64,000 nucleotides of DNA from an uncultured Candidatus Saccharibacteria bacterium (GTDB taxonomy: Bacteria > Patescibacteriota > Minisyncoccia > JAHISW01 > Tagabacteraceae): NCBI GenBank assembly GCA_964601305.1, contig CAZRMW010000001.1, forward strand, positions 135,450-199,449, written 5' to 3'. Made by a program: the position numbers and the translations under genes. The notes under the pieces were generated by a model. The model worked only from the letters and a program-made list of their open reading frames with translations, was not told the DNA's origin and searched no databases. Shown in pieces: positions 1 to 19,751 of the stretch. Every line of letters begins with the position of its first letter. The first letter of the stretch is position 1.

Positions 1-898
1 TTAACTCTTTGTCTCCATAATGTTTTAAGTATTCTTTCCATATTCCTTCGCAGTAATCAAACAGTTTGCACCCCTTACACCGCTCCGTTTTTTCGCGCCC
101 CACAACTTTTCTAGAATTTTCGACATCTAAGTTCTCAAAATCTGGCGCCAGATGTTCAGTTTCAAATGTTTGCACCTCTCTAAGTTCACTTACATTTGTT
201 AAATAATTTTTAAAATGACAAAGCGGTACATACCTAATATTCCAAAAAAAATTGCCCTCTTCGGATTCGGACGAGTTTTTTGTTAAATCTAGACACTTTT
301 TAACATAAGGCGCCACTTTAGATATTTTAGGAACTAATTTTTTAAAATTATCGTGCGCTCCCCCGTAGTTTGGGTCTACAAAAATAAACTCCGAAGTTTT
401 TATATTATTATCTAAAATAAACTGCCCTATTTTTGGTAGAAATTTATAGTTTTGTTTTACAATAGTTGTGTTAGAACCAATTTTTTTAAAGCCACATCTT
501 TTAAAATTTTCTAATCCCTTTTGAAGTTGACTAAAACTTCCCTTTGATTGAGTTAATAAATCGTGTAATTTAGAACTATGTCCATGGATAGAAAAAATAA
601 CATCGGTAAGACCTGCATTTATAGCTTTTCTGGTGTATTCAAGATACGAAAACATTCTCCCATTTGTAGCCATAGAGATAGTTTCAAACTTTAATCCCCG
701 AGCAAAACTTATAAGATCAAAAACATCTGGCCTTATTGTAGTTTCTCCTCCAATAAATTCGATATACGAAGTGCCTCTTTTTTTTGCTTCTTTCATTTCT
801 CTTTTTATTTCCTGGGTTGTTTTATTTCTTAAATCTCTTTTGTTTGAATCTATACAAAAAGAGCACTGATTGTTGCACTTATAACCAGTAATGATCAC
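1..898 (-). CDS. Radical SAM protein, 3' end running off the left window edge; paralog of 912..1760
   Basis: Reverse complement of 841-898 reads VIITGYKCNNQCSFCIDSNKR (CxxxCxxC). Reverse complement of 2-58 reads DYCEGIWKEYLKHYGDKEL, the same C-terminal Cys motif as the neighbouring rSAMs. No stop codon before position 1. Probable GTG start at 896-898. Confidence 0.7.
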   Translation of the reverse strand, partial: MIITGYKCNNQCSFCIDSNKRDLRNKTTQEIKREMKEAKKRGTSYIEFIGGETTIRPDVFDLISFARGLKFETISMATNGRMFSYLEYTRKAINAGLTDVIFSIHGHSSKLHDLLTQSKGSFSQLQKGLENFKRCGFKKIGSNTTIVKQNYKFLPKIGQFILDNNIKTSEFIFVDPNYGGAHDNFKKLVPKISKVAPYVKKCLDLTKNSSESEEGNFFWNIRYVPLCHFKNYLTNVSELREVQTFETEHLAPDFENLDVENSRKVVGREKTERCKGCKLFDYCEGIWKEYLKHYGDKEL

Positions 899-911
899 TG
901 TTTTTTTTATT

Positions 912-1760
912 TTAGAGTTTAAATTCTTCCTCGCCATAAAGATTTAAGTAATCCTTGCTAATGCCACCACAGCTTGTTTTATGTTTACAATTCTTACATA
1001 ATTTTATTTTTGTTTTTTGTAGATTTTCTTCAAGACACGGAAAAGCAAGCTCTCGATACTCTTTTGGAAAAACGCACGCAGGGTATTCTACAAACAAAAA
1101 CTTCACACCACTATGTTTATCTTGGCATTTTATTAGAGCTGGGACAACATCGCTCATCTTGGCAACCATTTTTTTAGAGGACCCAATCTTCTTATTTATA
1201 GGCATTATATGCCCTATATTTATTTCTACTACGCCAAGGCCAACAAAAAAACTTACTATTTCGTAAAGTTGTTTAAGATTTTTTTGAGTAACCATAATAT
1301 TAACAACCAAACTTGTTTCTAGTTTTTTATACAAAAGAATATTTTTTATTCCAGCAAGAGTTTGCTCAAAACTATTTTTGTCCAAAGTGTGCATGTCGTG
1401 CATTTTTGCACTATTTCCCATTACAGTAATTACAATTTGATCCGATCCACTTTTGAGAGCATTTTTAGCAAAATTTTTATAAGCAAACATTCTGCCATTT
1501 GTAGTAATACTAATATTCTTAAAATCCAATTTTTTTGCGTACAAAATAAGCTCAAAAATATCTTTGCGCAAAGTTGGCTCTTGCCCCATAAAGTTTATAA
1601 AATCAAAATTCTCTCTTATCAGTTTCATTTCTCTTTTAATCTCTGCAGTCGTTTTTTGTGAAAATTTTCTATCTGCTTCAAAACAAAAAATACACCGGTT
1701 GTTGCACACATAGCCAGCATAAACAAAAGGGCTCTTGCCTACTGTGTAATAATTATCCAT
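912..1760 (-). CDS. Radical SAM protein with C-terminal CxxCx5CGG auxiliary-cluster-like motif
   Basis: CNNRCIFC (CxxxCxxC), FMGQEPTL (GGEP-like), C-terminal CKNCKHKTSCGG...Y. Confidence 0.8.
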   Translation of the reverse strand: MDNYYTVGKSPFVYAGYVCNNRCIFCFEADRKFSQKTTAEIKREMKLIRENFDFINFMGQEPTLRKDIFELILYAKKLDFKNISITTNGRMFAYKNFAKNALKSGSDQIVITVMGNSAKMHDMHTLDKNSFEQTLAGIKNILLYKKLETSLVVNIMVTQKNLKQLYEIVSFFVGLGVVEINIGHIMPINKKIGSSKKMVAKMSDVVPALIKCQDKHSGVKFLFVEYPACVFPKEYRELAFPCLEENLQKTKIKLCKNCKHKTSCGGISKDYLNLYGEEEFKL

Positions 1761-3636
1761 GTTTTAGTTCTTTTATTTCTTTATCCCCCTTTTTTTTAAA
1801 ATAAGGTTTTGCTAAACCGCCACATTTATCAAAGTATACACAACTCTTACAAACCTTGGGTTTTATTTTGTATTTATCTTCGTATATGTATCCCTTCTTT
1901 GTTTTACTTTTGGAAACACGCTCTGGACCAAACCCTTTTTGATTTATATCTTCATATCTGTTTTGAGGAGTGAAAAAAGTTATATTTTTTATATCGAAAA
2001 CTTCTGGTTCAAAAATACAAAAAGGAAAATCAAAAATATCTACCTTATCAAAATGTTTGGAAAATTCTGATATTTTTTTAAACCCCAAAGATAAATCCTT
2101 ATACCCCACAGCTATATTGTTGTAAGCGCTAGTTCCCCTGCCATCTGGAAGAAGTTCTAAAAGATGCCATTCTCCAACACCCAAATCTCTTAAAAAATCT
2201 GCCATCTCCAAAAGATGTTTGTAGTTCATTTTCGAAACAACTGTATTTATTATTACTTTCACTTTTGGATTTTTAATAGCGTTTTTAACCCCCGAAAGAC
2301 ATTGCTTAAAAGAGCCTGGCGTTCTTGTCATTCCATCGTGCAGCACTTTTTTGTGCCCATGAAGAGAAAAATTTATAACCCGAAGACCTTCATCAACACC
2401 TTTTTTAAGAAAATAATCGTAGCCAAACAACCGACCATTTGTGGTTAATCGAATATCGTCAAAACCTATTTTTTTTGCCCCCGAAACAAGATTAAAAAAA
2501 TCTGATCGTATACTCACCTCTCCACCAATAAATTCTATTATTCTATATCCATCTTTATAGGCTTGTTTTACATCTTCTAATATTTCTTTTGTGCTTCTGT
2601 TTATATTTCTGTCTGAAACTGTTGTACAAAAAACGCAATTATTATTACACGACCAACCAGTAACCGCCAAAAAAACTTCTCCTTTGTTTTCAGTTTCTGT
2701 TTTTTTTCTGCTGACAACAGGTTTTAGTTCATCTGCCCCGTAGATTGAAACATAATCTTTCCAAAGTCCTCCACATCTATCGTCAAAAAAACATTTCTCA
2801 CAAACAGATGATTTTATTTTTGTTTTTTTATGAAATTTTTTAGAAGCAAGTTGATATCTTGTATTTTGATTTGCATCAACAAGACCAACATTTTCCGGCT
2901 GATCTAATTCTTGTTGATCAAGTAAAACATCTTCATATTCACTTAAAAAACACAGCGGCACCGTACCACACGTACTTAAAGAAAAATTTATTTTTTTCTT
3001 TTTGCATAAATCTAGAGCCTCTTTTAAATATGGTTCTACCTTCGAGAGTTTTGGAAAAATATCCTTATTCTTTAGAGCTGCGCCAGCAGGATAAATAAAA
3101 GAAAAAGTAATATTTTTTATTTTAGGAAAATTTTTATCAACAAATTTCACAAAGTCTGGCAAATACTCATAATTGTATCTAGAAATAATATGGTACAAAG
3201 AAACATCTTTACATTCACAAGACAGCAAGTTCTCTATTCCTTTTATTGTTTTATCAAAAGAATTTTTCGTGCCAGTAATTTTTTCCGAAATATTTTTTTT
3301 GTGTGAATGAAGCGACACTGAAAAAGATGCAGGCAATAATTTTTTTACCAAACCCCTATCTGCCAAAGAAACTCCGTTGGTTAAAATGTTAATTTTTTTA
3401 AAGCCCAGACCCACGGCAAAACCAACAAGCTCTTTGAGGTCCTTTCTCAGGGTCGGTTCTCCGCCGTCGAAGTAAATTTCATCATATCCTTCTTTTGCCT
3501 TTTTTTCTAAAATTTTTTTAGATTGACTCGTATTTAGAAGCTTGATTTTTGGCTCATCGCCCCCCCGCGCACAAAACAAGCACTTTTGATTGCAATTTCC
3601 TAAACTAGCAAAATATATTTTTTTTGTACTTTTCAT
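1753..3636 (-). CDS. Fused tandem double radical SAM protein (two rSAM cores, each followed by a CxxCx5CGG motif)
   Basis: CNQKCLFC near the N-terminus and CNNNCVFC around residue 330. FDGGEPTL and FIGGEVSI. CEKCFFDDRCGG mid-protein and CKSCVYFDKCGG at the C-terminus. Confidence 0.8.
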   Translation of the reverse strand: MKSTKKIYFASLGNCNQKCLFCARGGDEPKIKLLNTSQSKKILEKKAKEGYDEIYFDGGEPTLRKDLKELVGFAVGLGFKKINILTNGVSLADRGLVKKLLPASFSVSLHSHKKNISEKITGTKNSFDKTIKGIENLLSCECKDVSLYHIISRYNYEYLPDFVKFVDKNFPKIKNITFSFIYPAGAALKNKDIFPKLSKVEPYLKEALDLCKKKKINFSLSTCGTVPLCFLSEYEDVLLDQQELDQPENVGLVDANQNTRYQLASKKFHKKTKIKSSVCEKCFFDDRCGGLWKDYVSIYGADELKPVVSRKKTETENKGEVFLAVTGWSCNNNCVFCTTVSDRNINRSTKEILEDVKQAYKDGYRIIEFIGGEVSIRSDFFNLVSGAKKIGFDDIRLTTNGRLFGYDYFLKKGVDEGLRVINFSLHGHKKVLHDGMTRTPGSFKQCLSGVKNAIKNPKVKVIINTVVSKMNYKHLLEMADFLRDLGVGEWHLLELLPDGRGTSAYNNIAVGYKDLSLGFKKISEFSKHFDKVDIFDFPFCIFEPEVFDIKNITFFTPQNRYEDINQKGFGPERVSKSKTKKGYIYEDKYKIKPKVCKSCVYFDKCGGLAKPYFKKKGDKEIKELKHG

Positions 3637-3637
3637 T

Positions 3638-4534: not shown

Positions 4535-4535
4535 A

Positions 4536-5654
4536 TTAATTTTTAAAATATTTTTCTTCCCAAACCAAGTCCTGATGTTTTTTAAAAAATTCAGGATTTT
4601 CTAGCTTTTTATAATACTTATAGCACTGCACGTCTGGAACAAAAAGTTTGCCAGCATAACAGTATTTTACACAAGGCGCCCCACCAAAACAAAGGTCGAA
4701 ATTACTACATTTTTTACAAAAAATATGCGCATTGTTTAAATTTCTTAAATCTGCCAATTTTTCTGATCCGAAATAAACATCTTTCATTGTATCTTTCTTT
4801 ATATTTCCCAATTTTATAGGAAGCCTTCTGCAAGGATAAATATCCCCATTTGGCATAATCACCATTATTCTCCCCTCTATTATTCCACAATAATTTTTTA
4901 TGGATAGTTCGCCCATCTCAGAGTTAAATAGGCCACTTTCACATCCTGTGCTTATTCTGAGAGAACTTTTCTCTTTAATTAAACTTTTATTGGCTTCTAA
5001 AACCTGCCTATAAAAATTTTTAAGTTCTTTTGGTTCTAAAATGCTATTTTTAAGTTTTTTCCCTCTTCCCCAAGAAATAGGCCTCCTTACCCCCAATGTC
5101 GATACCCCCATACCACCTAGTCTTTTTGCTAGAGCAGGAACATCTTTTATATTTTCTTTTGTTAAGGTTAGCGAAACCACAGTTTTTATGTTTGCATCCA
5201 CCAACATTTCTATTGCTTTTAAAATTTTTTTAAAAGATCCTTTGCCTCTAATTTTATCGTTAGTTTTTTCTTCTCCCTCTAGGCTTACTTGACAAGCTAC
5301 AATATTATAATCCTTCAGCTTTTTTATATTTTTTTTTGTTAAAAGAGATCCGTTTGTAAGAAGTGCCCACTCAAATAAATCCACATTATCACCAAGACTC
5401 CTCGCAAAATTTAGAAAATCTTTTCTTATCATTGGCTCCCCTCCTGTAATATTTATCCTGGCAAATTTTTTGGACAACCCCCATTTCTTGATTAAAAAAA
5501 TGTACTGATTTAAAACCTTCGCAAGCTCCTTCCTAGACATTTCCTTTTTTATAAAATCTTTGTTTTGATAACAGTGCCCACACCTCCAGTTGCACCTTTC
5601 TGTAATGTGCCACTGCAAAGTAAAAGAAGTAGGTTTTAAAATTTTATTAGACAT
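4536..5654 (-). CDS. Radical SAM/SPASM-domain protein
   Basis: CNWRCGHC, ITGGEPMI, Cys-rich C-terminus (CGIIEG...CRRLP...CKKCSNFDLCFGG...C..C...C). Confidence 0.8.
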   Translation of the reverse strand: MSNKILKPTSFTLQWHITERCNWRCGHCYQNKDFIKKEMSRKELAKVLNQYIFLIKKWGLSKKFARINITGGEPMIRKDFLNFARSLGDNVDLFEWALLTNGSLLTKKNIKKLKDYNIVACQVSLEGEEKTNDKIRGKGSFKKILKAIEMLVDANIKTVVSLTLTKENIKDVPALAKRLGGMGVSTLGVRRPISWGRGKKLKNSILEPKELKNFYRQVLEANKSLIKEKSSLRISTGCESGLFNSEMGELSIKNYCGIIEGRIMVIMPNGDIYPCRRLPIKLGNIKKDTMKDVYFGSEKLADLRNLNNAHIFCKKCSNFDLCFGGAPCVKYCYAGKLFVPDVQCYKYYKKLENPEFFKKHQDLVWEEKYFKN

Positions 5655-7015
5655 TAAAGATTCTTTTTATTAGCTAGTGGATCTTTTTTGAAATAATCAC
5701 CATAAAACACCTTGGACGCTTGCCTACTTCCTCCTTTGCATTTAGAAACAAAAAAACATTTTTTGCATTCTTCTGGCAAATAATTTAAACTGCGGATTTT
5801 TTTTAGAAATTTATTTTTCCATACTTTTAGCACACTTGAAGTATCTCCTAAATTTTCATCGATAAAATAATGTGGTTTGTAAAACCCTCTCGGATCGACA
5901 ACAATTCTTGAATGTCCGTCGTCGGCAGTTGCGCCAACAGAAATACTACTCAATTTATTTGTATCTTTAATTGCACAAAAAGGAAGAGAGTTAGCTAAAG
6001 CAATAGGCATATCTAGTGTTTTTCTTATTTTAAAAATTTTTTCTACAAAAACTTTTACTAATTTAGAGTCTAAGATATTTTCTCCCGATATAGGAATTGG
6101 CCTATAAAACTCCCACTCATCAATGGGAAGTTTTTCAATAAAATCAGCCATATTTTCAAGATTTAAAATATTTTCTTTTGTAAGCACTGTGCCAACACGA
6201 ACAGTTTTTATTCCACTTTCTTTCAAAAATTTTATAGAGATTTCTTTCTTTTTTAAAACCCCTTTTCCTCCTGTAATTATATCCTCTTTTTGGGGTAAAT
6301 AATTTTCTATTGGGATTAAAATGTTGTCGACAAGTTTTGCTAAATTGTCTGCCATGGCTTTGTTTACCAAAATTCCATTTGTGTTTAGCCTTACTTCATC
6401 AAATCCCCTATTTTTTGCATACTTAAGAATTTTAAAAATATCTTTTCGTAAAAGAGGCTCCCCTCCAGTAAACCTGACTGTTTTTATTTTTGAACTATAG
6501 ACATCGTCTATAATTTTTTTTGTTTTCTCAAAACCCAACCGGGGAGACTTTTCTCTTCCACAAGAGGCAAAGGAAATTTTATTAAAACAAAAATTACACC
6601 TTAGATTACACTTTGGCTCTATTTCTATCATTACTTCTGTAGGTAAATCCAAAATAGGACTAAAGCCATTCTCCCTATAGTATTTCAAGTATCCCTTCGG
6701 GAATCCTCCACAAGATTTGTCCCACTTACATTTTTTGCAACTTTTCCCTTTATCTCCAGAAAAATTATCAAAAACGATATGGTCAAGAGAATTTGAAGAA
6801 ACCAAGCAATATGGAAAATTCTTTAAAATAATTTTTATCTTGCTTTCATATTTATTTAAAAGATTGTAAATAGATTCGAGAAGTTCTGGAAAAGACGGTA
6901 AATCAAGCAAGTTTTCTGCCAAAATAATTTCTAAGTTTTCTGATCTACTTTCAACAGCAATCTTCGCCAAAGAATCTATTGTTGAATAGTTTTGTTTGTC
7001 TATTTTATATTTCAT
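5654..7015 (-). CDS. Radical SAM protein with an extra N-terminal domain carrying the family CxxCx5CGG motif
   Basis: N-terminal CKKCKWDKSCGGFPKGY, central CNLRCNFC, FTGGEPLL, C-terminal CKKCFFVSKCKGG. Confidence 0.75.
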   Translation of the reverse strand: MKYKIDKQNYSTIDSLAKIAVESRSENLEIILAENLLDLPSFPELLESIYNLLNKYESKIKIILKNFPYCLVSSNSLDHIVFDNFSGDKGKSCKKCKWDKSCGGFPKGYLKYYRENGFSPILDLPTEVMIEIEPKCNLRCNFCFNKISFASCGREKSPRLGFEKTKKIIDDVYSSKIKTVRFTGGEPLLRKDIFKILKYAKNRGFDEVRLNTNGILVNKAMADNLAKLVDNILIPIENYLPQKEDIITGGKGVLKKKEISIKFLKESGIKTVRVGTVLTKENILNLENMADFIEKLPIDEWEFYRPIPISGENILDSKLVKVFVEKIFKIRKTLDMPIALANSLPFCAIKDTNKLSSISVGATADDGHSRIVVDPRGFYKPHYFIDENLGDTSSVLKVWKNKFLKKIRSLNYLPEECKKCFFVSKCKGGSRQASKVFYGDYFKKDPLANKKNL

Positions 7016-7653
7016 TTTCTCAAAACTCTAAAGTTTTCTTCATCAATAATTTCTACAACAGTAGAAGGTCTCTTTTTAGGCAACTCGCCAACATCCAAAA
7101 TTAATATATCTGAGGGAAAATTATTTTCCTCTCCAAATTGATTTAACAGCTCCTCTACGCTATAACACACCTCCCTACCAGATAAATTGGCGCTAGTTCC
7201 CACAAGTGGATTATTCAATTTAGAAAGTAGTTTTAAATAAAAAATATTTCTAGGAATTTGTATACCAATTGTTTTTAATCCAGGATTTAGACTAATAGGT
7301 ACGTTGTCTTTCCTTGGTACAATAAATGTAAATATTTTTTCTTGTTTTTTTTGAAGTATTCTTTCAACCAAAAAACTTGCCTTTCCATAAGTATTAAACT
7401 CTTCTACATTTTTGACTGTTATAAAAAAGGGCTTACTATAATCCCTGTTTTTAAACTGATAAATTTTTTTTATTGCATCTTCATTGTTCATATCGGCACC
7501 TATGCCATAGCAAGAATCTGTAGGATGCACAATAAGACCCCCTCTCTCTATCACCCCAATCGAAGCTTTTATTGCTTCATTTACTTCTTTCTCGTTTTCT
7601 TGATTTATTTTTAAAATTTCCATACTCATATCAAAGTGTAATGTTAGGCTCAA
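7012..7653 (-). CDS. YrdC/Sua5/TsaC-family (threonylcarbamoyl-AMP synthase-like) protein
   Basis: HPTDSCYGIGAD resembles the PTDTxYGLG signature. About 210 aa. Shares a 4-nt overlap with the downstream gene. Confidence 0.65.
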   Translation of the reverse strand: MSLTLHFDMSMEILKINQENEKEVNEAIKASIGVIERGGLIVHPTDSCYGIGADMNNEDAIKKIYQFKNRDYSKPFFITVKNVEEFNTYGKASFLVERILQKKQEKIFTFIVPRKDNVPISLNPGLKTIGIQIPRNIFYLKLLSKLNNPLVGTSANLSGREVCYSVEELLNQFGEENNFPSDILILDVGELPKKRPSTVVEIIDEENFRVLRK

Positions 7654-10726: not shown

Positions 10727-10749
10727 CTTTAGCTTGAAAGACCCTTACC

Positions 10750-10965
10750 TTACCAACTGGTAATTTCGGTCTCATCGACACCGAAAAACATATCGGTGTC
10801 GATGGCTGACGGCAAGTTTGTCGAAAACCATTTCATGATTTCGGCATCATTTATGTTTATGCCGAAATACATGTCAGAATCGACGGCCGACATAGGCTCG
10901 GCAGCGATGGCCAGAGAAGCAACAAAACAAACAATAAGTGCGGCGATAAGCAGTGAACGGATCAT
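10750..10965 (-). CDS. Small secreted/signal-peptide protein with two internal repeats (DSDMYFGI.../DTDMFFGV...)
   Basis: 71 aa with a hydrophobic N-terminus (LLIAALIVCFVASLAIAA). Strong SD AAGGAG 7 nt before the ATG. TTGACA-N17-TAAACT promoter on the minus strand at about 11024-11052. GC about 46% against about 30% in the flanks. Confidence 0.5.
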   Translation of the reverse strand: MIRSLLIAALIVCFVASLAIAAEPMSAVDSDMYFGININDAEIMKWFSTNLPSAIDTDMFFGVDETEITSW

Positions 10966-12233: not shown

Positions 12234-13147
12234 AATCTTTTTTTAGTATCTTCTATAGATATTGAAAAACTATTCCCCCAATTAAGGTGTTCGTACCCTT
12301 TATTGGCAAGCATTTCTAGAAAAAAGAGATTCAAAACACCACTAGCACCCGGTATTTTTCTGTCTACACACAAAACACTTCCAGATAAATTCTTTGATTT
12401 TGCAAGTTTGAAGGCAATATTTATCCCTATTGGACGCTGGTTGCAACACAAAACAAAACTTTCATACAATCTTGGGTTTTTTAGTGTTTCTTTTACTATT
12501 CTTAGATTCTTATTATAAACATGCTTGTAAGTAACAAGATTGGTCTCCTCTTTCTCCGCCCCCCTCTCTTTGTGTTTTTTCCAATCATCTAAAAGTCTTT
12601 TTACGCCACAATAATTACTATCTAACAATGGCTGGTAGGAAATTTGTTGTTTAGTTTTCTGTTTAGCTACAAAATTAAAAAAACTATTCCAACTTTTTCG
12701 TCTTAAATCAGGCTTGTCAGACAAAAAATCTTCTAAGTTTTTATAATCAGGCAGGTAAGAAATAAGCCTCTTTCGTTTTACAAATTTTATGGATTTGAAC
12801 TTTTCGTTGTGCAAATATTTATCTAAAACCTGTTCTGGCAACTCCCAAAGCCAAGCTTTTCTAAAATTTTTACCTAATTTATCTTTTCGTTTGATTAAAA
12901 AAGAAAATAATTTCTCTTGCCAATCTTTACCCTTGGGACAACAGAAAAAATACATTCCTGAATTAAACTTACCAAAAAAGAAAATATCTTTCCCGTCGTT
13001 GTAACTCAGGGCTAGTTTATTGCCATCAATATAATTATCAACAAAAGCTTCGCTGTCACTAAAAAAAGAAGAATTGGGGCTACATAAACGATTAAAGAGT
13101 TCTACGTCACCCTTATTAATTGAATGTATTTCAGATAAATTAACCAT
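12179..13147 (-). CDS. Hypothetical protein (322 aa), no confident family assignment
   Basis: Long ORF co-directional within the operon. No recognisable motif. Confidence 0.45.
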   Translation of the reverse strand: MVNLSEIHSINKGDVELFNRLCSPNSSFFSDSEAFVDNYIDGNKLALSYNDGKDIFFFGKFNSGMYFFCCPKGKDWQEKLFSFLIKRKDKLGKNFRKAWLWELPEQVLDKYLHNEKFKSIKFVKRKRLISYLPDYKNLEDFLSDKPDLRRKSWNSFFNFVAKQKTKQQISYQPLLDSNYCGVKRLLDDWKKHKERGAEKEETNLVTYKHVYNKNLRIVKETLKNPRLYESFVLCCNQRPIGINIAFKLAKSKNLSGSVLCVDRKIPGASGVLNLFFLEMLANKGYEHLNWGNSFSISIEDTKKRFCPRKQEYSYEYFIDFIN

Positions 13148-13157
13148 TATTAAATAT

Positions 13158-14531
13158 TTAATTAAAATCTTTTTCTAGTTTAGGGTGATTTGGAAGATTT
13201 TCTAGCTTCTTAAGAGCAATTAAAATCTCCGACAAACTAGTCTGACAAAATAAATGCACCCAATCATTAATCATCTCCTGTCTATCAAAACTATCTTTAT
13301 ATTTATATTTCTTCTCCATTTTTTTAACCAATAATTGAAAAGACAAAGAATTAGGCAAAGGCTCAAAAATATGAGACAAGACCACATTCATACCTAACGC
13401 ATTAAGTTTATACACAAAATCTACTGTCCGATCTATTGAATCTTTGCTTTCTCCTGGACCACCAAACACAAAATTCCCTATTACACTAATTCCGGCTTTC
13501 TTCAAATCTTTTACAGCCTTAAACCCAATACTAGTTACTGTGCCTTTTTTCATAGAAGAAAGTATTTTTGGATCACCGCTTTCTAGCCCCAAAACAACCT
13601 GATGAATGTTGAGATCTTTAATTTTTTTAATATTCTCAGAATTTATATCATCAGCTCTAGCATAAACTCTCATTCGTGGTTTAAAACTATATCCTTTGTA
13701 CAAACTGTGAAATTCTTTAAACCAACCTTTCTGATCAAAAAAATCATCACTAATATCCCAAATAAGATCCGCGTTAAATTTTTTTACCAAAGAATCTATC
13801 TCTTCCAAAACTAAATGGGGACTACGAGCTCTTAGGCTCTTATACATTCTAGAACAAAAAATACAGCCACCTTTTGAATTTGTGCGCCAACCACAACCCT
13901 TTTTTGAATATATATGAAAAACATTTTTGTAAAAGCGATCAGGCCATTTTTGATCGAAAATTTTATAATATTTTTTATAATCAATTATTTCCCGACCAAA
14001 ATTGGGCAAGCTGTTTAAATCAACGTGTTCAATTATATTTTTTTTAATAGAGCCGTCTTTTCTGTCTTGGAAAACAAGATTCTTTATTTTGCTTAAAGGT
14101 TTGCCTATTGCATATTCATAAAAACTCCTTTCCCCATCTTCTTGAATAACCGCATCAACACAATAATTATCAGAACAAATTCCTCGATTTAGCATAATTT
14201 CTTCAGCAAGACCTGTTGCATGATGGCCACCCATAACAACTTTACTGCCCAACATCTTCGATTTTAAAGCCAAAGACAAAGCATTGCCATAATTAACAAG
14301 CATTGGTCCAATTCCCACCAAGTCCGGTTTATTTTCTTCTAAAAAAGAAATAGTTTCAGAAAGATCCAAAATTTGGCCATCTAAAATATGTATTTCTGCT
14401 TTTAAATTTTTTCTTTCTAAATAATTAGCCAGACTAATAGCCCAAAGTGGTGGATAAATACACCCCTCAATAAAAACGTTATCATTATATCCATCGTCGT
14501 CTTTTGGGGGATCTATCAACACAATAATCAT
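13158..14531 (-). CDS. B12-binding domain / radical SAM (class B rSAM, methyltransferase-like)
   Basis: N-terminal Rossmann-like cobalamin-binding region (LVGIGPM...VVMGGHHATG), then CGWRTNSKGGCIFC and LGLESGD. Typical class-B architecture. Confidence 0.7.
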   Translation of the reverse strand: MIIVLIDPPKDDDGYNDNVFIEGCIYPPLWAISLANYLERKNLKAEIHILDGQILDLSETISFLEENKPDLVGIGPMLVNYGNALSLALKSKMLGSKVVMGGHHATGLAEEIMLNRGICSDNYCVDAVIQEDGERSFYEYAIGKPLSKIKNLVFQDRKDGSIKKNIIEHVDLNSLPNFGREIIDYKKYYKIFDQKWPDRFYKNVFHIYSKKGCGWRTNSKGGCIFCSRMYKSLRARSPHLVLEEIDSLVKKFNADLIWDISDDFFDQKGWFKEFHSLYKGYSFKPRMRVYARADDINSENIKKIKDLNIHQVVLGLESGDPKILSSMKKGTVTSIGFKAVKDLKKAGISVIGNFVFGGPGESKDSIDRTVDFVYKLNALGMNVVLSHIFEPLPNSLSFQLLVKKMEKKYKYKDSFDRQEMINDWVHLFCQTSLSEILIALKKLENLPNHPKLEKDFN

Positions 14532-15241
14532 AGATGACTTTTTTTAAGAATATATATTGGATAAAGTTCAAAATCGCTGTAATCAGCAGCCATTTTTAAA
14601 TCACGAACAATAAAATATTTTGATAAAAGCTCATCAATTTCTTCTACTGTTCTTTGTGTAAGAATTTGAGAATCATTCTTTTTGTTAATAATATTTTTAT
14701 CAAACAAACACACGCGGGTAACAAAAAATCCAGTCTCTTTCAGCAAAAGAGAAATTCTTTTTAAAAATTCCGCTTGTTCATTTGGCTCAAAATTACACAA
14801 AACAAAATCACCAATAATTAAATCAAAATGACTTTCTTTTAAAAAACCAGTCAAATCCATCCAATTAGCCTTTGTCCATTTTTCATTATTTTTAACCTCC
14901 TCTTTACATACCACAACATCAATATTAAGCTTAAACAAAACATCTCTTATTTCTGGGGTAGAACCTAAGAGCAAAACTTTTTCTTTTATGCTTATTTGAT
15001 TAAAAATCAGCAAGTAATTTTTGATATCTTCTGGAGAAAGCCTAAAAGGAGAAGAATATTCGGCCCACCTTGATAAAGCGCCACCCTGATCTAGTTCGTC
15101 AAATAAGCTATTGTTATTCGACAATTCTAATGATTTCTGTAGTTTTTTATTGTTGTTTATACCTCTTATTGTCATTAATTTTTCAGCTGATATTTTAAAT
15201 TTCTTTTGTGTTATTCTCTCATAAAAAGTATGGGCACTCAA
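14528..15241 (-). CDS. Rossmann-fold SAM-dependent methyltransferase-like protein (paralog A)
   Basis: VLLLGSTPEIRDV...VVVCKEE and FDLIIGDFVLCNFEPNEQAEFLKRISLLLKETGFFV (motif II/III-like). Paralogous to 15284..16135. Confidence 0.4.
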   Translation of the reverse strand: MSAHTFYERITQKKFKISAEKLMTIRGINNNKKLQKSLELSNNNSLFDELDQGGALSRWAEYSSPFRLSPEDIKNYLLIFNQISIKEKVLLLGSTPEIRDVLFKLNIDVVVCKEEVKNNEKWTKANWMDLTGFLKESHFDLIIGDFVLCNFEPNEQAEFLKRISLLLKETGFFVTRVCLFDKNIINKKNDSQILTQRTVEEIDELLSKYFIVRDLKMAADYSDFELYPIYILKKSHL

Positions 15242-15283
15242 GCATTTGTACCAAAAGAAGTATATATTAATTTAATACGACGC

Positions 15284-16135
15284 TCACTCCAAGCATCGTT
15301 TTTTCATTTTGTATACTGGATAAAATTCCGAATCTATATAGTCACCAGAGTTTATATTTTTATTTATATAAAAACTATCCAAAAACATTTTTTCTAATTC
15401 TTCTTTAGTATTCTGAACCCATGTTCTCTTCCCTCTCCATTTTTTTAAAATATTTTCTAAAACAACTTTTTCTCTTTTGCTTGTTGTTTTGTTATTTAAA
15501 TAGTTATAAATATCATTGGTAAATTTTTCTTTATTAATTTTTTTATTTTTCAGATTTGTGTTTTTATCAAACAAACGAGATGTTATAAGATCCTCGATCA
15601 ATTTACTTTTCAAAACAGAATATTTTTTAAAAGCGTTTTTTATTATATTTTCTGACTTAAAATTAATCATTTTTTTGTTAAAACAATGTATTCTCGTAAT
15701 AAAAATTCCTTCTTTGTTTAATAGTCTTGAGATTTTGTTTAAAAACTTGCTTTGGTATTTGGTCTCAATATTTCGCAAAACCAAATCTCCCAAAATAAAA
15801 TCAAAATAATTATCCTCAAAAAATTTATCTAAATTTAACCAATCAATTTTTATCCATTCTTCTTTGTTTTTGTTAATTTTGTATCCTAATTTAGTCATTT
15901 CTTCCATCATTTCTATAGAAAAATCTGCCACAGTAATTTTAGAACTATTTTTTGAAAAAATTTCTCTAATTTCTGGGGTAGCTCCCAACAATAATATTTT
16001 TTTATTACTATCTATACCAGAAAAATAATTTTTTATGTCCTTTTTAGAAGGTCTGAAAGGGAAAGTATATTTATTCCATAACAAAGAAGCATTTTCCCAA
16101 TTTGATTTTTTAAAATTACTCTTTTTTGTTTTCAT
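15284..16135 (-). CDS. Rossmann-fold SAM-dependent methyltransferase-like protein (paralog B)
   Basis: ILLLGATPEIREIF, FDFILGDLVLRNIETKYQSKFLNKISRLLNKEGIFI. Clearly homologous to 14528..15241. Confidence 0.4.
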   Translation of the reverse strand: MKTKKSNFKKSNWENASLLWNKYTFPFRPSKKDIKNYFSGIDSNKKILLLGATPEIREIFSKNSSKITVADFSIEMMEEMTKLGYKINKNKEEWIKIDWLNLDKFFEDNYFDFILGDLVLRNIETKYQSKFLNKISRLLNKEGIFITRIHCFNKKMINFKSENIIKNAFKKYSVLKSKLIEDLITSRLFDKNTNLKNKKINKEKFTNDIYNYLNNKTTSKREKVVLENILKKWRGKRTWVQNTKEELEKMFLDSFYINKNINSGDYIDSEFYPVYKMKKRCLE

Positions 16136-16197
16136 TAAAAAATAATACCAAAGGATTGGTATTTATAAAACACAAACAACTAGCTGTAATCTCAAAA
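16136..16197 (-). terminator. Intra-operon hairpin plus U-tract (partial terminator/attenuator) between the membrane-protein gene and the methyltransferase-like genes
   Basis: On the minus strand, AAUACCAAUCCUUUGGUAUU (8-bp stem) is followed by AUUUUUUA immediately before the next start codon. Confidence 0.4.
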
Positions 16198-17109
16198 CTA
16201 CTCAATCTCACACAACAAACCTAAAAAAACACTTAAATGTTCCGTCTCGCAATAATCTCCCTTGATGTATTCTTCGTATTCTTTTATCCTTAAAATTTCG
16301 TCATTGCATACTATTTCTGAAGTTCCCATATTTTTACAAACTAGACGAGAAAAATCTTCACCTAAAGATCTATAGGCATAAGCAATTCTAATACCAGTCT
16401 GCACCTCTCTTATTTTTTTATTTTCTACCAAAGGCCCTATGCCCTCTATCGCTTTGAGTGCTTCACCTTCTTCTAGCCCGGAAAAACTCTTTGCAACGTC
16501 ACAAATATTATCACATTTCTTCGGAAATCCACTAGGAGTAGTGTCCAAAGAATTTAATCCATCCTCACATCTTTTTGTTAAAAGACTACAAGTATCTTCG
16601 TTTAAATCTTCTACTGTGGCTAAAACAAGTATAAGTTTATTAAAACCTTCTCTTTCTTCTAATTTTTCCAGATATGTTTTTTTTGATTCATCAGCAGTAT
16701 CTTCTTGATAATTTATATTTTCAATAAAATTTTTAGCTCTATTATAAAAATCTTCATCATTAGGATTTGCAAGAGATTTACATATTAAATATCTTCTAAG
16801 TTTACCGACAGCCAAAGACATTCTGTCTAATTCAAATGTAGTATTTCTAAAAACAATGTTGTTAACCTTAAAATCCAAGCTTTTGTCTGATTCTTTTAGA
16901 TTTGCTAATTTTTCTATCAACTCATCGTCTGATAAATTTTTAGATTCTTCTAAACATTTTGCTTTTACCGCTTCTGATGAAATATGGTGTTGGTCTCTAC
17001 TAAAAAACCAAAAAGCCACAGCTAATAAAATCAAAACAACTGCTGTAAATATTATTGAAAATTTTTTATTTTGTAGCATTTGAAAAATTAATAAGCCGGA
17101 CTCATACAC
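16198..17109 (-). CDS. Membrane-anchored Cys-rich hypothetical protein
   Basis: N-terminal TM segment (FSIIFTAVVLILLAVAFWFF) and many Cys residues. Probable start at M11, which removes the overlap with the precursor gene. Confidence 0.5.
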   Translation of the reverse strand: MYESGLLIFQMLQNKKFSIIFTAVVLILLAVAFWFFSRDQHHISSEAVKAKCLEESKNLSDDELIEKLANLKESDKSLDFKVNNIVFRNTTFELDRMSLAVGKLRRYLICKSLANPNDEDFYNRAKNFIENINYQEDTADESKKTYLEKLEEREGFNKLILVLATVEDLNEDTCSLLTKRCEDGLNSLDTTPSGFPKKCDNICDVAKSFSGLEEGEALKAIEGIGPLVENKKIREVQTGIRIAYAYRSLGEDFSRLVCKNMGTSEIVCNDEILRIKEYEEYIKGDYCETEHLSVFLGLLCEIE

Positions 17110-17570
17110 CCGCCACCACTACAACACGCAAAACAAACACAAGCATTTGAATGGTTTGCATGAGAACTATGTGAACCATGGCTACCGTGTGATCCATGAC
17201 TACCGTGACGGCCGTGACTACCGTGAGACCCATGCGATCCATGCGAACCATGAGATCCGTGACTACCATGCGATCCGTGACTACCATGCGATCCGTGACT
17301 GCCGTGAGAACCATGTGAGCCATGAGAACCGTGAGACCCATGCGAGCCATGCGAACCGTGAGACCCGTGGCTACCGTGTGATGCATGAGAACAATCAGCC
17401 GAACTTGTATTTGGCTTCATCGCCCCCGAAAGCACAACACCCAAAGACAGCACCCCCATAGCAATTTTGGCAGCACTTTTTTTATTTATTCTACCCTCTT
17501 CACTATTTAAAAAAGCTTTTATATCTTTTTTAATTTGAGGAAATTTTTCTTCCGATTTCTTTTTGGCCAT
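17088..17570 (-). CDS. His-Xaa-Ser repeat (HxsA-like) precursor-type protein: leader/TM-like N-terminus, 27 S-H-G-type triplets, Cys-rich tail CVCFACCSGGGC
   Basis: Translation MAKKKSEEKF...SSADC-SHA-(SHG)19-RHG-(SHG)3-SHS-SHA-NHS-NACVCFACCSGGGCMSPAY. A rSAM/SPASM gene sits directly upstream. Confidence 0.8.
   Translation of the reverse strand: MAKKKSEEKFPQIKKDIKAFLNSEEGRINKKSAAKIAMGVLSLGVVLSGAMKPNTSSADCSHASHGSHGSHGSHGSHGSHGSHGSHGSHGSHGSHGSHGSHGSHGSHGSHGSHGSHGSHGRHGSHGSHGSHGSHSSHANHSNACVCFACCSGGGCMSPAY
17148..17390 (-). repeat. 9-bp-periodic coding tandem repeat encoding Ser-His-Gly triplets
   Basis: catgNccgtgNNtaccgtg-type periodicity with varied codons (synonymous heterogeneity), so not a recent slippage array. 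Confidence 0.85.
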
Positions 17571-17591
17571 TAACTAAATTATAACAATTAT

Positions 17592-19022
17592 TTAATTTTT
17601 ATTAAACCAGTCTTCTAAAATTTTTCTAGACTCTTTATTTTTAAGTTTTTCAAACAAAAACTCTAGTGTTGCCATATTTATCTTACACCTTTCATTTGAA
17701 GACATTTGCCCAAAAATATTTCCCTGAACAAAATAATTGTATATAGGGCAAACCCCGCAATACGGCTTGTAGGCACAATCGCAACACCCGGGCAGACCAT
17801 CTAAGCACGACGCCATACACATAGTTCTAGATACAGGACTAGCTACTATTTCTTGGTAACTATCCTTGGAAACATTGCCAAGTCTAAAACTTTCATCGCC
17901 CATCATACTCATCATTCTGCCTTCATCGCACGTGTAAACATCGCCATTATAATTGTAAGCTAGCTGCCCTATACCTGCTCCGCACGGAGACCTAAAATCT
18001 AAATGGTTTGGGTCTTTGTGAGTTAAAATTTTTGCCAAAAAAGTAATAGCCATTTTTTCCCTGAAATCTACCCCTTTTTTGTTTAATTCTAAAATATAAT
18101 CAAAAGCGGCTTTGTAGAAATCCATATATTCATCGGTAGTATAGCCAATTTTTTCAAAATGATTTTTAGAAAAACCAAATGGATTAAGCGGTCTTAAATA
18201 AACATCGGAAAATCCAAGCTTAATAAATTCGTCTATCATTTTTTTATAATATGGCAAAGAGAATTTGCTTACGGTTACAGAAGGACTTAGTTTGTAAATA
18301 TAGCCTTTTTTCTTTAGCTGTGGATACATCTTATTAAACTTTTTCGCCCATTTAATCGCATGTTTGTAGCTGTTTTTATTTTTGCCACTTATTATTGGCC
18401 TGTTTTTATTGTGGACACCCTCTGGGCCGTCTAAAGAAATACAAAAACTCACTTTGTTGTCTATTAGATATTTAAACTTGTTTTCTGTCATCAAAGAAAA
18501 ATTAGAAACTAACCTTAGTTGCAAATCTTTATTAGCTTTTTTATTTTTTTCTTGCGCATACTCAATAATAAATTTTACTATAGACCAATTCACCAGTGGT
18601 TCTCCCCCCTGAAATTCTATTGCCACAAAATCACTTGTTGTTTCAAAAATTTTATCAACCACGCTTTTTGCAGTTTTTTTATCCATATCTAAATCCCCTC
18701 TATCTAAATCTTGGGCGCTTGCATGACAATATACACACTTATGATTGCATCTTAAAGTAACCACAACTATGTGCAAACTGGGTCCACCAAAAACAAAATC
18801 ATTTTTAGATTTATATTTTTCTATTACATAGCTTAAGTCTGCTTCATTTTTTAAGAAATTTTTGTCCTCTAGTTTTTTGTATAGTTTACTCCTCTTTTTT
18901 ACTTTTCCATCTTTAAAATCTTGAAAATCTTCTTTACCTAAAAACAAAAAATCACCAACATCGTTGGTTAAAAAATATTCATCTCCCACTAATTTAAAAC
19001 GAAAATGACTAGGTTTGCTCAT
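17592..19022 (-). CDS. Radical SAM/SPASM maturase (HxsB/HxsC-like, anSME-like)
   Basis: CNHKCVYCHA, FQGGEPLV, C-terminal SPASM cysteines (CGAGIGQ...C...CMASC...CCDCAYKPYCGVCP). Confidence 0.8.
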   Translation of the reverse strand: MSKPSHFRFKLVGDEYFLTNDVGDFLFLGKEDFQDFKDGKVKKRSKLYKKLEDKNFLKNEADLSYVIEKYKSKNDFVFGGPSLHIVVVTLRCNHKCVYCHASAQDLDRGDLDMDKKTAKSVVDKIFETTSDFVAIEFQGGEPLVNWSIVKFIIEYAQEKNKKANKDLQLRLVSNFSLMTENKFKYLIDNKVSFCISLDGPEGVHNKNRPIISGKNKNSYKHAIKWAKKFNKMYPQLKKKGYIYKLSPSVTVSKFSLPYYKKMIDEFIKLGFSDVYLRPLNPFGFSKNHFEKIGYTTDEYMDFYKAAFDYILELNKKGVDFREKMAITFLAKILTHKDPNHLDFRSPCGAGIGQLAYNYNGDVYTCDEGRMMSMMGDESFRLGNVSKDSYQEIVASPVSRTMCMASCLDGLPGCCDCAYKPYCGVCPIYNYFVQGNIFGQMSSNERCKINMATLEFLFEKLKNKESRKILEDWFNKN

Positions 19023-19025
19023 AAA

Positions 19026-19253
19026 TTAATTAAGCATTAAAGCTAAAACATAATTGCAAAATTCATCTTTTACCAGAGTAGCTTTAGATTTTTTTAGATT
19101 TTTTATTTTCACTGAAAAATAGTTCCCTTTTCTGCTAAAAACAAAATCTGCAAAACCACTAAAGTCTTTTATGGCCAATTTTATTGCTCCTAATTTATAT
19201 AACTTATTATGAAATTTTATTGTTTCCATATTTTTCTTCCCATGGCACGGCAA
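19026..19253 (-). CDS. Small hypothetical protein (75 aa)
   Basis: ORF within the operon. No motif. Confidence 0.3.
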   Translation of the reverse strand: MPCHGKKNMETIKFHNKLYKLGAIKLAIKDFSGFADFVFSRKGNYFSVKIKNLKKSKATLVKDEFCNYVLALMLN

Positions 19254-19629
19254 TGCCTAATGGATCATCCTCAGAGTTAAACGAATCATCAAAATCTTCT
19301 TCGCTTTCTCCCACAGCCGAAAACAAAGCTTGTCCCACTATAAACTCTCTTATTTTCTTATTGTTTTTAGAAAGTCTCGCTCTAGTTTCGCAACTTAATA
19401 ACTCGTTTAAAAATTCATCTTTCAAATTTTCTAATTGTTTTTTGGTAGAATTTTTTTTAGATTTTAAAGATACCAAAATTTTTTTTGGACTTTTGTTGTC
19501 AAAAAATATATAGGCTTTATCTAAAAACGCATAAGCTGCACCATAAAGAGCATCTACAGAATAATTTTGTAGATTAAAAACAAATTCTATCTTATCTTTT
19601 TCGATTTTTTCGCTATATTTTTTACTCAT
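19207..19629 (-). CDS. Hypothetical acidic-C-terminus protein; possible HxsD-like accessory protein (weak FLNELLSCE resemblance to the LLNDYxLRE motif)
   Basis: 140 aa ORF, first gene of the block. Confidence 0.35.
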   Translation of the reverse strand: MSKKYSEKIEKDKIEFVFNLQNYSVDALYGAAYAFLDKAYIFFDNKSPKKILVSLKSKKNSTKKQLENLKDEFLNELLSCETRARLSKNNKKIREFIVGQALFSAVGESEEDFDDSFNSEDDPLGIAVPWEEKYGNNKIS

Positions 19630-19751
19630 TGTTAATTAAATAGCTATCTTCAAAGCATGTCTCATTAGCCTTAGTTTTTGCCAAATAAAAACCAGCATAA
19701 AAAGATAGTGCTAAAAAAACAAAAACAAAGAGATATCTAAAAAAAATCTTC
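19622..19751 (-). CDS. Possible small membrane peptide (42 aa, MKIFFRYLFVFVFLALSFYAGFYLAK...) upstream of the cluster
   Basis: Short ORF below the track cutoff. Hydrophobic. Confidence 0.2.

Follow-up and report, generated by a model that had tools for sequence, protein, structure and literature searches.

Canonical His-Xaa-Ser (HXS) systems, with the genes HxsD-B-C-A, are antiphage systems, 99.7% of which are found in Pseudomonadota (Li et al., Nat Commun 2026, PMC13128918). Their effector HxsA is a periplasmic, peptidoglycan-anchored protein whose five HxS repeats bind DNA and keep the phage genome from entering. HxsB, HxsC and HxsD, the last two of which bind each other, are all needed for its maturation, which brings a +8 Da change on the sequence SHRSS together with an N-terminal cleavage of non-canonical type (PMC13128918). 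Here we describe an Hxs locus in a 64,000-nucleotide stretch of DNA, called the window below, from an uncultured Candidatus Saccharibacteria bacterium (assembly GCA_964601305.1, contig CAZRMW010000001.1, positions 135,450 to 199,449 of the forward strand). The locus is a greatly expanded Hxs variant, conserved in a group of bacteria from the candidate phyla radiation and undescribed in the literature searched. We lean towards reading it as a “type 4” His-Xaa-Ser variant, in which one co-directional supercluster (~26 kb, ~25 genes) would modify a repeat precursor, HxsA4.

An initial annotation of this DNA, made from the sequence alone, had called Hxs chemistry uncharacterised, which is partly outdated given the antiphage role, the +8 Da change and the N-terminal processing of HxsA now described (PMC13128918). 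The chemistry behind the +8 Da change itself is unsolved, and the systems studied consist of four genes; the present variant joins a recognisable core to a conserved battery of radical S-adenosylmethionine (rSAM) and transferase genes. A 2022 rSAM mapping paper merely lists HxsB as an annotated cluster, and the literature searched mentions neither HxsA4 nor HxsC4, nor any Hxs cluster in Patescibacteria. Since NCBIfam has models for HxsA4, HxsC4 and HxsD-like, the core variant is already on record there, if not in a publication. The Hxs families TIGR03976-03979 reportedly come from work by Haft and Basu in 2011.

Like canonical HXS, the locus has an HxsD-family protein, an HxsB maturase and a tandem H-x-S substrate with an N-terminal export signal, and its HxsC-type rSAM proteins carry the C-terminal CxxCx5C. 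It differs in having 27 contiguous repeats rather than five, two HxsD-type proteins, ~20 extra genes, a Patescibacteria host and a chromosomal position between housekeeping genes. No HxsC lies beside HxsB, the HxsC-family domains being 12-18 kb away and all under cut-off, and HxsA4 has a long conserved leader, a hydrophobic helix and a Cys-rich tail instead of a peptidoglycan-binding domain. Compared with the NCBIfam variant models (HxsA4, HxsA3 NF038309, HxsD-like, HxsC4), the precursor lies above the HxsA4 cut-off (NF038313), a small protein lies above the HxsD-like cut-off (NF038315) and the HxsC-like genes match HxsC4 (NF038332) best, whereas these genes reach 132-233 bits against an HxsC4 cut-off of 500 and the extended module described below is in no model. 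The locus also resembles multi-rSAM pathways for ribosomally synthesized and post-translationally modified peptides (RiPPs; SkfB, SuiB, PapB-type ranthipeptides, proteusin-type) in its conserved leader and variable core, SPASM rSAM enzymes beside the precursor, B12-binding rSAM, methyltransferases and dedicated protease, and the fold of one of its rSAM proteins, C298, matches SkfB and SuiB. It departs from them in its far larger number of rSAM domains (12), mostly of one family, in a presumptive substrate that is a membrane-targeted 160-amino-acid repeat protein, and in having a TsaD-like/YrdC pair and a GT28 glycosyltransferase in the conserved set.

Gene string, Hxs core and precursor

Every gene of the string lies on the minus strand, from HxsD (19207-19629) down to position 1; all substantial open reading frames between 19629 and 1 have this orientation, and GC skew across the string is uniformly negative. 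Gene calls were taken from L010, another assembly of the same organism that is 99.9-100% identical to the window, and give an intergenic spacing of -26 to +101 nucleotides, the two widest gaps (101 and 89 nucleotides) lying on either side of a 71-amino-acid open reading frame. The single-strand, tightly spaced string described in the initial annotation therefore stands, while its figure of about 23 genes is reached only when the upstream class II ribonucleotide reductase and a 98-amino-acid open reading frame are counted with the 21 cluster genes in the window. It was right about 11 rSAM domains, which fall in 10 genes and not nine (by Pfam PF04055 and CxxxCxxC motifs): HxsB, a B12-binding rSAM, a 388-amino-acid rSAM/SPASM protein, a 303-amino-acid and a 453-amino-acid rSAM protein, a 372-amino-acid rSAM/SPASM protein, C298, C627 (two domains), C282 and C316. 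Both SPASM proteins that it noted carry PF13186, HxsB being a third in the window, and for its B12-binding rSAM both PF02310 and PF04055 are present at 13158-14531. The CxxxCxxC motif is intact in all rSAM genes except that of the B12 enzyme.

The left edge of the window cuts the cluster, and L010 shows how it continues: C316 is followed by C301 (rSAM), a 392-amino-acid polytopic membrane protein, a 361-amino-acid PKD/Ig protein and a 632-amino-acid TPR protein, then by rpoD. Window and L010 together give a whole system of ~25 genes, 11 of them rSAM genes that carry 12 rSAM domains in all, over ~26 kb; the transcription order is HxsD, HxsD-like, HxsB, HxsA4, membrane protein, ~12 genes and then the HxsC-like array. 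The genes at its head and the parts of the precursor are as follows.

19207-19629, minus strand: HxsD, 140 amino acids, first gene of the string (TIGR03976, 65.6 bits against a cut-off of 50; PF27806)
19026-19229, minus strand: HxsD-like protein, 67 amino acids by gene call (NF038315, 73.1 bits against 41)
17592-19022, minus strand: HxsB rSAM/SPASM maturase, 476 amino acids (TIGR03978, 529.1 bits against 370)
17088-17570, minus strand: HxsA4 precursor, 160 amino acids (NF038313, 107.3 bits against 55)
17475-17570, minus strand: Lys-rich leader of HxsA4
17418-17474, minus strand: hydrophobic helix of HxsA4
17148-17390, minus strand: 27 x-His-x triplets of HxsA4
17091-17147, minus strand: Cys-rich tail of HxsA4, NACVCFACCSGGGCMSPAY
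16198-17079, minus strand: membrane-anchored Cys-rich protein, ~293 amino acids, with one N-terminal hydrophobic helix and 10 Cys, fifth member of the core

Four window genes, HxsD, HxsD-like, HxsB and HxsA4, score above NCBIfam curated cut-offs, and together with the membrane-anchored Cys-rich protein they make up the conserved core. The HxsB alignment spans model positions 3-465 of 466; the protein has PF04055 and PF13186 domains and the motif CNHKCVYC, is 36% identical to the HxsB of an Aeromonas plasmid, and is the rSAM/SPASM maturase that the initial annotation had placed immediately upstream of the precursor. The Hxs set named there is thus present above cut-off for HxsA (as HxsA4), HxsB and HxsD, and not for HxsC, since all candidates fall short of the HxsC and HxsC4 cut-offs, the best of them lying beyond the window edge.

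Parcubacteria-type lineages commonly have HxsB homologues at 53-73% identity, and five further genomes (L004, L006, L008, L046 and L047) were examined around this gene. All five have HxsD (45-64% identity), HxsD-like, HxsB, an HxsA4-type precursor and then a gene of ~275-310 amino acids. The HxsD-like gene comes immediately before HxsB in L004, L006, L008 and L046, and a 145-amino-acid gene lies between them in L047. Among the fetched loci, the gene directly after HxsA4 matches the window Cys-rich protein by BLAST in four of the five genomes (25-37% identity in L004, L006, L008 and L046); in L047 a 289-amino-acid gene occupies the position and has no BLAST match to it. The Cys-rich protein itself had no family match in NCBIfam or Pfam, including a lenient scan, and nothing meaningful in a PDB sequence search, and a word-index homologue search returned only a 97% identical copy.

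The repeat of HxsA4 consists of 26 consecutive [S/R]-H-[G/A/S] triplets followed by NHS, which bears out the 27 triplets and Cys-rich tail first described and places 27 His in the 81 residues before a six-Cys tail; the protein contains 24 overlapping H-x-S matches. At the DNA level the units are imperfect copies (64-77% matches), which rules out a simple slippage array. In two further assemblies of this organism the contig breaks within the repeat, and the repeat number therefore rests on the window assembly; contigs built from short reads of this and related organisms (L001, L002, L009) likewise end there. Precursors in the five other genomes share the leader LPQIKKDIKAFLTSEEGKINKK, the hydrophobic helix and the junction ADPTSAAC[ST]HA, and have 14 to 42 SH[GS] repeats with an aromatic residue at the end, so that the repeat number varies while the unit is unchanged; compared with these five, the Cys-rich tail occurs in the window HxsA4 only.

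A HMMER scan with the 62-residue leader gave 67 clusters at 50% identity. The cores behind this leader differ in length and composition; some consist of H-x-S repeats, some of CHS/NCH repeats, and others are acidic. RiPP-type substrates are expected to pair a conserved leader with a core that varies, and this pattern is found here together with HxsB beside the precursor in all six genomes, including each of the five in which precursor homologues were looked up; none of these homologues lacked a neighbouring rSAM gene, a finding that the initial annotation had named as one that would refute its proposal. Two other proteins, P0283 (522 amino acids) and P0292 (484 amino acids), combine an HxsA-type leader and His/Cys-rich repeats with a conserved ~350-amino-acid C-terminal domain without assigned function. 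Pfam Collagen/Scl matches to HxsA4 are a low-complexity artefact of its G-x-x periodicity and do not make it a collagen-like adhesin, and a type IV pilin is ruled out because there is no class III signal motif.

The HxsC-family array and the conserved module

The far end of the string consists of a module that recurs in other genomes. It was defined from C298 neighbourhoods (L013, L014, L015) and from long loci found with an alignment of the TsaD-like protein, and its order is GT28, a variable gene, TsaD-like, YrdC, the 453-amino-acid rSAM, another rSAM with a protein of 64-81 amino acids, the array, the A24-like protease and PKD/Ig. Some module loci have no C627 or C301, or break off earlier. 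In the window and its continuation the members are the following.

8665-9822, minus strand: GT28 (MurG-like) glycosyltransferase, 385 amino acids (PF04101, 57 bits), at which the conserved module begins
7631-8668, minus strand: TsaD/Kae1-like protein, a divergent paralogue of 345 amino acids (PF00814, 109 bits; TIGR03723, 136 bits against 296)
7012-7623, minus strand: YrdC/TsaC-type adenylate-forming protein, 203-213 amino acids (PF01300, 147 bits; TIGR00057, 141 bits against 123)
5654-7015, minus strand: 453-amino-acid rSAM protein (PF04055, 80 bits; motif CNLRCNFC; N-terminal CxxCx5C-GG and C-terminal CxxCx5C)
4536-5654, minus strand: rSAM/SPASM protein, 372 amino acids (PF04055 and PF13186), specific to this genome
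3638-4534, minus strand: C298 (HxsC4 158 bits against 500, then HxsC 99 bits)
1753-3636, minus strand: C627, with two PF04055 stretches, two CxxxCxxC and two C-terminal motifs (HxsC4 233 bits, HxsC 172 bits)
912-1760, minus strand: C282 (HxsC4 132 bits, HxsC 103 bits)
1-937, minus strand: C316, its last few codons beyond the window edge (full protein L010:13598-14548; HxsC4 146 bits over the whole model)
L010:15456-16634, outside the window: A24-like membrane protease, 392 amino acids (Pfam Peptidase_A24, 26.4 against a gathering score of 26.5)

The array comprises six HxsC-family rSAM domains in five genes: C298, C627, C282, C316 and C301. HxsC4 or HxsC is the best match for all five, well above generic rSAM families (MoaA, AhbD, BlsE). 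An assignment of the rSAM genes to MoaA or QueE, housekeeping families that the initial annotation had named as a possible undoing of its proposal, can be set aside, both scoring below HxsC4/HxsC and far under their own cut-offs. C301, outside the window, scores 180.5 bits with HxsC over model positions 31-289 of 292 and is closest to canonical HxsC by BLAST, which makes it on these scores the best HxsC candidate of the whole locus. The HxsC-like proteins have the C-terminal motif CxxCx5C-[G/E/L]-G-x4-Y; the motif first noted here was thus real, with four rather than three residues before the Tyr and with [G/E/L]-G in place of G-G. The same motif is found in canonical Aeromonas HxsC (CDDCASKAVCCG; plasmid NC_009349) and contains the CxxC pair C342/C345 that was mutated as the second 4Fe-4S site of HxsC (Li et al., PMC13128918).

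Each member of the array resembles its counterpart in other genomes far more than its neighbours. C298 has orthologues in more than 120 clusters at 60-71% identity, those of C627 are 57-67%, those of C282 63-67% and those of C316 65-71% identical; overall, the paralogues are 56-71% identical to their positional orthologues and 25-34% to each other. This indicates that the duplications are ancient and that each copy has been maintained. An AlphaFold2 model of C298 (predicted local distance difference test score, pLDDT, 94.6) has BlsE as its nearest structure (27% identity) and lies similarly near SkfB, GDGT-MAS, viperins, SuiB, DesII and MoaA.

Upstream of the array, GT28 orthologues are 32-43% identical (L013-L015, L017, L020, L021, L028, L031-L033) and precede the TsaD-like gene, either directly or one or two genes upstream. 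Homologues of the TsaD-like protein in metagenome loci are 45-57% identical and were found in 21 loci, 17 of them matching across the full protein, with HxxxH and DNAAM invariant among orthologues; a scan of genome contigs with the single window protein had as its sole match a 23% identical Fibrobacteraceae TsaD. YrdC, in which the KxR and SxN motifs can be read from the sequence, follows the TsaD-like gene in every long module-bearing locus, directly or, in L015, with one small gene between. As in TsaC/TsaD of the t6A pathway, TobZ and HypF, the pair thus keeps the YrdC motifs, with the TsaC cut-off passed, and the HxxxH and DNAAM metal-site motifs; unlike TsaD, the TsaD-like gene always lies between GT28 and an rSAM gene, is sometimes duplicated and reaches 136 bits against a TsaD cut-off of 296, and unlike TobZ and HypF the two proteins are separate and not fused. 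The candidate carbamoyl/adenylyl-transferase, glycosyl, methyl and B12-rSAM functions first proposed for the cluster are accordingly present at the domain level, as TsaD/Kae1-like plus YrdC, GT28, two class-I methyltransferases and the B12-rSAM. Some clusters contain a second, more divergent TsaD-like/YrdC pair (33-40% identical; L004:16108-19626, and L020 and L033 with two copies each), and in L004 a 574-amino-acid rSAM gene lies between the two members of this second pair, with an ATP-grasp gene adjoining.

Orthologues of the 453-amino-acid rSAM are 47-54% identical (L013-L015, L020, L021, L028, L031-L033). The best NCBIfam matches of the 372-amino-acid SPASM protein are ACGX-system rSAM, SbtM and PapB types, all under cut-off, and in other genomes its position is held by a different rSAM of ~460 amino acids and the 64-81-amino-acid protein. 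In most related clusters (L013:8413-8607, L014:9791-10000 and eight further loci) the latter (MDKKLLKK...FLITFTVFN...DTFLFVNDFPY...) immediately precedes C298; the window does not have it. The GT28 gene is split in L010 (235 and 173 amino acids) by a small indel at window ~9210-9225, and the 453-amino-acid rSAM gene in L012, likewise an assembly of this organism (130 and 294 amino acids), at window ~6601-6677; these splits are either strain-level pseudogenisation or assembly errors. A fusion of rSAM and GT2 glycosyltransferase, 519 amino acids long, lies within the conserved module at L015:3412-4971.

Downstream of the array, the A24-like protease has two Asp motifs, YEDLKYGKVRN and AAGDAKLF, that are both invariant in four orthologues. 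It shares two invariant Asp motifs and a polytopic membrane topology with prepilin and preflagellin peptidases (Peptidase_A24), and differs from them in its length (392-405 amino acids), its extra helices and a Pfam score just under cut-off; HxsA4 has no G/FTLIE-type class III signal, and the pilus clusters of related genomes encode an ordinary PilD as well. The C-terminal part of the 632-amino-acid TPR-PKD protein is a copy of the 361-amino-acid PKD/Ig protein.

Linkage of core and module and the choice of substrate

The module lies on the same contig and strand as the core in four of the five other genomes, or five of six including the window. Besides the window with L010, these are L004 with L013 (one 60-kb contig), L008 with L015 (overlapping by 1539 bp and hence contiguous), L047 with L048 (4.2 kb apart on one contig) and L046, where the module is directly upstream of the core and not downstream. 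The neighbourhood comparison called for in the initial annotation thus recovered the extended enzyme set with the Hxs core in other genomes. The strongest argument for a functional link of core and module is that their adjacency has been kept through rearrangement; a second is that none of the six cores has an HxsC of its own, although canonical HXS requires one. These observations favour a supercluster that acts on HxsA4. That all cluster enzymes would act on this one protein is what synteny suggests, and the heavily modified His-rich peptide pathway proposed at the outset therefore stands as undescribed in the literature searched, with its single-substrate part being an inference from gene order.

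Several observations weigh against this reading. Two of the five linked genomes were picked since the lengths of their contigs already hinted at linkage. Seven long TsaD-anchored loci have no Hxs core within 10 kb upstream (in the genome of one of them, L032, the same HxsB protein is also found on L046, where the core follows the module), and the L006 core has no HxsC-like array within 10 kb downstream, so that the coupling may not be obligate. No HxsC-family gene adjoins HxsB in the window, gene order departs from D-B-C-A, and no gene of the family reaches a trusted cut-off, the best scores being 180.5 against 267.9 for HxsC (TIGR03977) and 233 against 500 for HxsC4. The C298 fold resembles both peptide-acting and nucleotide-sugar-acting enzymes and is silent as to which substrate is used, and related clusters are rich in glycosyltransferases, including the rSAM-GT2 fusion in L015. 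As for a role in defence, neither Pfam nor NCBIfam finds a peptidoglycan-binding domain in HxsA4, though a hydrophobic N-terminal helix is present, and PADLOC gave generic rSAM similarity to viperins only, with no defence-system model matched.

If the supercluster does mature HxsA4, the pathway might run as follows. HxsA4 would be made with its Lys-rich leader, one hydrophobic helix, 27 Ser-His-Gly-type repeats and Cys-rich tail. HxsB and the enzymes of the HxsC family, docked via the two HxsD-type proteins, would act in the cytoplasm and place radical-mediated modifications on the H-x-S motifs, a step proposed because the canonical HxsC-HxsD complex has been linked to the +8 Da change. The methyltransferases, B12-rSAM, GT28 and YrdC/TsaD-like pair may add methyl, glycosyl and carbamoyl- or threonylcarbamoyl-type groups, the last by adenylate-activated carbamoyl or threonylcarbamoyl transfer, and in this genome only, the two SPASM enzymes specific to it may cross-link the Cys-rich tail. 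The hydrophobic helix would then bring the modified protein to the membrane, and its leader could there be cut off by the A24-like protease or by signal peptidase, the invariant EEG[KR]I or AGA|MK being candidate cleavage sites, and the modified His-rich array would stand at the cell surface beside the Cys-rich and PKD proteins. Of the roles considered, an envelope barrier that intercepts incoming phage DNA appears most likely by analogy with canonical HXS, a suggestion in which we place low confidence. A bolder proposal, to which we give some credence but hold only tentatively, is a lineage-wide Parcubacteria pathway of at least 25 genes and at least 12 rSAM domains that would turn membrane-targeted poly(Ser-His-Gly) into a cross-linked, glycosylated, acylated surface polymer or His-derived cofactor, by means of specialised enzymes of the HxsC family together with a TsaD/YrdC pair co-opted from tRNA modification, and that would be central to the episymbiotic surface or to defence. 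If true, such polymer or cofactor chemistry would be without precedent among RiPPs.

The modules with no core within 10 kb upstream and the L006 core with no array within 10 kb would also be explained by two or three independent systems in juxtaposition, among them a five-gene Hxs4 core and a separate, widely conserved Parcubacteria module (GT28, TsaD-like, YrdC, rSAM array, A24-like protease, PKD). The module would then supply pilins, PKD proteins or the cell envelope, and not HxsA4, with an unusual group derived from a sugar or nucleoside. The nearest fold to C298, BlsE, and the nearby viperin, DesII and MoaA are nucleotide or nucleotide-sugar enzymes, the clusters contain several glycosyltransferases, a sulfotransferase and a GFO/IDH/MocA oxidoreductase besides the rSAM-GT2 fusion, type IV pilus genes lie beside them in L006, L008, L014 and L015, and a dedicated prepilin-peptidase-like gene closes the module. 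Yet the top families of the array are HxsC4 and HxsC and not sugar-acting rSAM enzymes, the peptide maturases SkfB and SuiB are equally good fold matches, and the core has no HxsC of its own. The occurrence of core and module on one contig in five of the six genomes, and their lying side by side in the same direction whichever of the two comes first, also speaks against chance proximity, and we consider this explanation unlikely on balance.

Two further explanations accept that HxsA4 is matured by the supercluster and differ on what the product does. A metal-binding role is a serious alternative, the product being a His/Cys-rich binder of Ni, Zn or Cu, anchored at the surface or released, that would serve as a store or act in the manner of a metallophore. 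Such a role would suit the density of His in the repeat and the six-Cys tail, same-leader family members with CHS/NCH repeats and Cys-rich ends that resemble metal ligands, the lack of a peptidoglycan-binding domain, and housekeeping neighbours in place of a defence island. The sole experimental Hxs data, however, concern antiphage defence through DNA binding by the repeats; the cluster has no metal transporter or metal-responsive regulator (an ABC transporter beside the L046 cluster is of the NMT1/BPD type), and radical change of His or Ser would probably alter simple His ligation. We therefore rate the metal binder as rather improbable. Very improbable, in our view, is a sacrificial scaffold whose Ser-His-Gly units are modified and excised as many copies of a small cofactor or metabolite, by the logic of PQQ and mycofactocin. 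The many identical tripeptide units, the very large enzyme set, a repeat number of 14 to 42 with a constant unit, and PqqE- and MftC-related SPASM rSAM proteins among the weaker matches would all fit it. No conserved unit-excising peptidase accompanies them, the A24-like intramembrane protease being the only protease; the hydrophobic helix and extracytoplasmic partner proteins suggest export of a polymer, and canonical HxsA works as a protein.

The hosts have very small genomes with otherwise few biosynthetic or known defence genes, and the pathway could explain surface protection or decoration in candidate-phyla-radiation cells. If the enzymes act on HxsA4, it would be, by our own assessment and not by systematic comparison, among the most rSAM-dense peptide maturation pathways known, and the array would offer a natural paralogue series for dissecting the roles of HxsC. 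The conserved leader and the gene sets of several genomes are now defined, and as the precursor is small and naturally His-rich, it should bind Ni resin.

Variable middle section, host and neighbouring genes

Between core and module lies a variable section with two methyltransferases, the B12-rSAM, two SPASM rSAM genes (one of them the 372-amino-acid protein above) and a 71-amino-acid peptide.

15284-16135, minus strand: class-I S-adenosylmethionine-dependent methyltransferase, 283 amino acids (PF08241, 29 bits)
14528-15241, minus strand: second, divergent methyltransferase-like protein, 237 amino acids, start codon uncertain (weak PF08241 and CpaM matches)
13158-14531, minus strand: B12-binding class-B rSAM, 457 amino acids (PF02310, 40.7 bits; PF04055, 56.4 bits)
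12179-13147, minus strand: 322-amino-acid protein, with a homologue only in L017 among the fetched loci
11067-12170, minus strand: rSAM/SPASM protein, 367-388 amino acids (PF04055; PF13186, 40.6 bits; motif CNLKCIYC)
10750-10965, minus strand: 71-amino-acid secreted-looking peptide, with a hydrophobic, signal-peptide-like N-terminus and two D[ST]DM[YF]FG[IV] repeats
9815-10660, minus strand: rSAM protein, 281-303 amino acids (PF04055, 64 bits; motif CNQKCSYC)

The 283-amino-acid methyltransferase has a 43% identical orthologue after the Hxs core in L006, and the 237-amino-acid protein is its paralogue. For the B12-rSAM, which has homologues in L006, L017 and L047, the best NCBIfam matches are HpnJ and a RiPP C-methyltransferase family, both under cut-off; its cluster motif is Cx10CxxC (CGWRTNSKGGCIFC), and homologues in L006, L047 and L048 have Cx9-10CxxC where the canonical motif is CxxxCxxC. 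The 322-amino-acid protein had no family match in NCBIfam or Pfam, including a lenient scan, and nothing meaningful in a PDB sequence search, and a single-sequence AlphaFold2 model of it was unusable (pLDDT 38). No close orthologue of the rSAM/SPASM protein at 11067-12170 was found in the other loci, and it is specific to this genome. The rSAM protein at 9815-10660 recurs, with orthologues 44-49% identical in L008, L017, L020, L031 and L033. Between these two genes sits the 71-amino-acid open reading frame, followed by a hairpin with a 13-bp stem and a T-run (10700-10730); no fetched locus contains a homologue of this peptide, and it may serve as a second substrate.

An Rfam scan of the window found three tRNAs only and no riboswitch near the cluster, and in a promoter and terminator scan promoter-like sites were not above the shuffled expectation (70 against 78); the best of them, 8 nucleotides before the HxsA4 start, was not relied on.

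The nearest named homologues of HxsB and C298 belong to Portnoybacteria, Falkowbacteria, Magasanikbacteria, Pacebacteria and the “Parcubacteria group”. The window has a GC content of ~0.32, and outside the cluster it carries RecA, FtsK, RNase J, YchF, a split transketolase, GroEL and the class II ribonucleotide reductase. The locus thus appears to be part of the chromosome of a Patescibacteria (Parcubacteria-type) bacterium and shows no mark of a mobile island; recent horizontal acquisition is unsupported given the uniform GC content and the housekeeping neighbours. If host genomes of this kind are taken to be smaller than 1 Mb, the cluster would take up 3-5% of one. Two separate genes (window 52203-54210, minus strand) make up the transketolase: its N-terminal part is encoded by one, its pyrimidine-binding and C-terminal parts by the other.

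Type IV pilus genes (PilM/O, ATPases, pilins, PilD) stand directly upstream of HxsD at L006:1-8871 and L008:127-8879, and pilin-like genes follow the PKD gene at L014:19000-20866 and L015:18567-20416. A Peptidase_U32 gene lies near or inside several clusters (window 23064-24335, plus strand; L004:1858-3159; L006:19856-20731; L013:4608-5555), and in L006 it adjoins a small rSAM gene.

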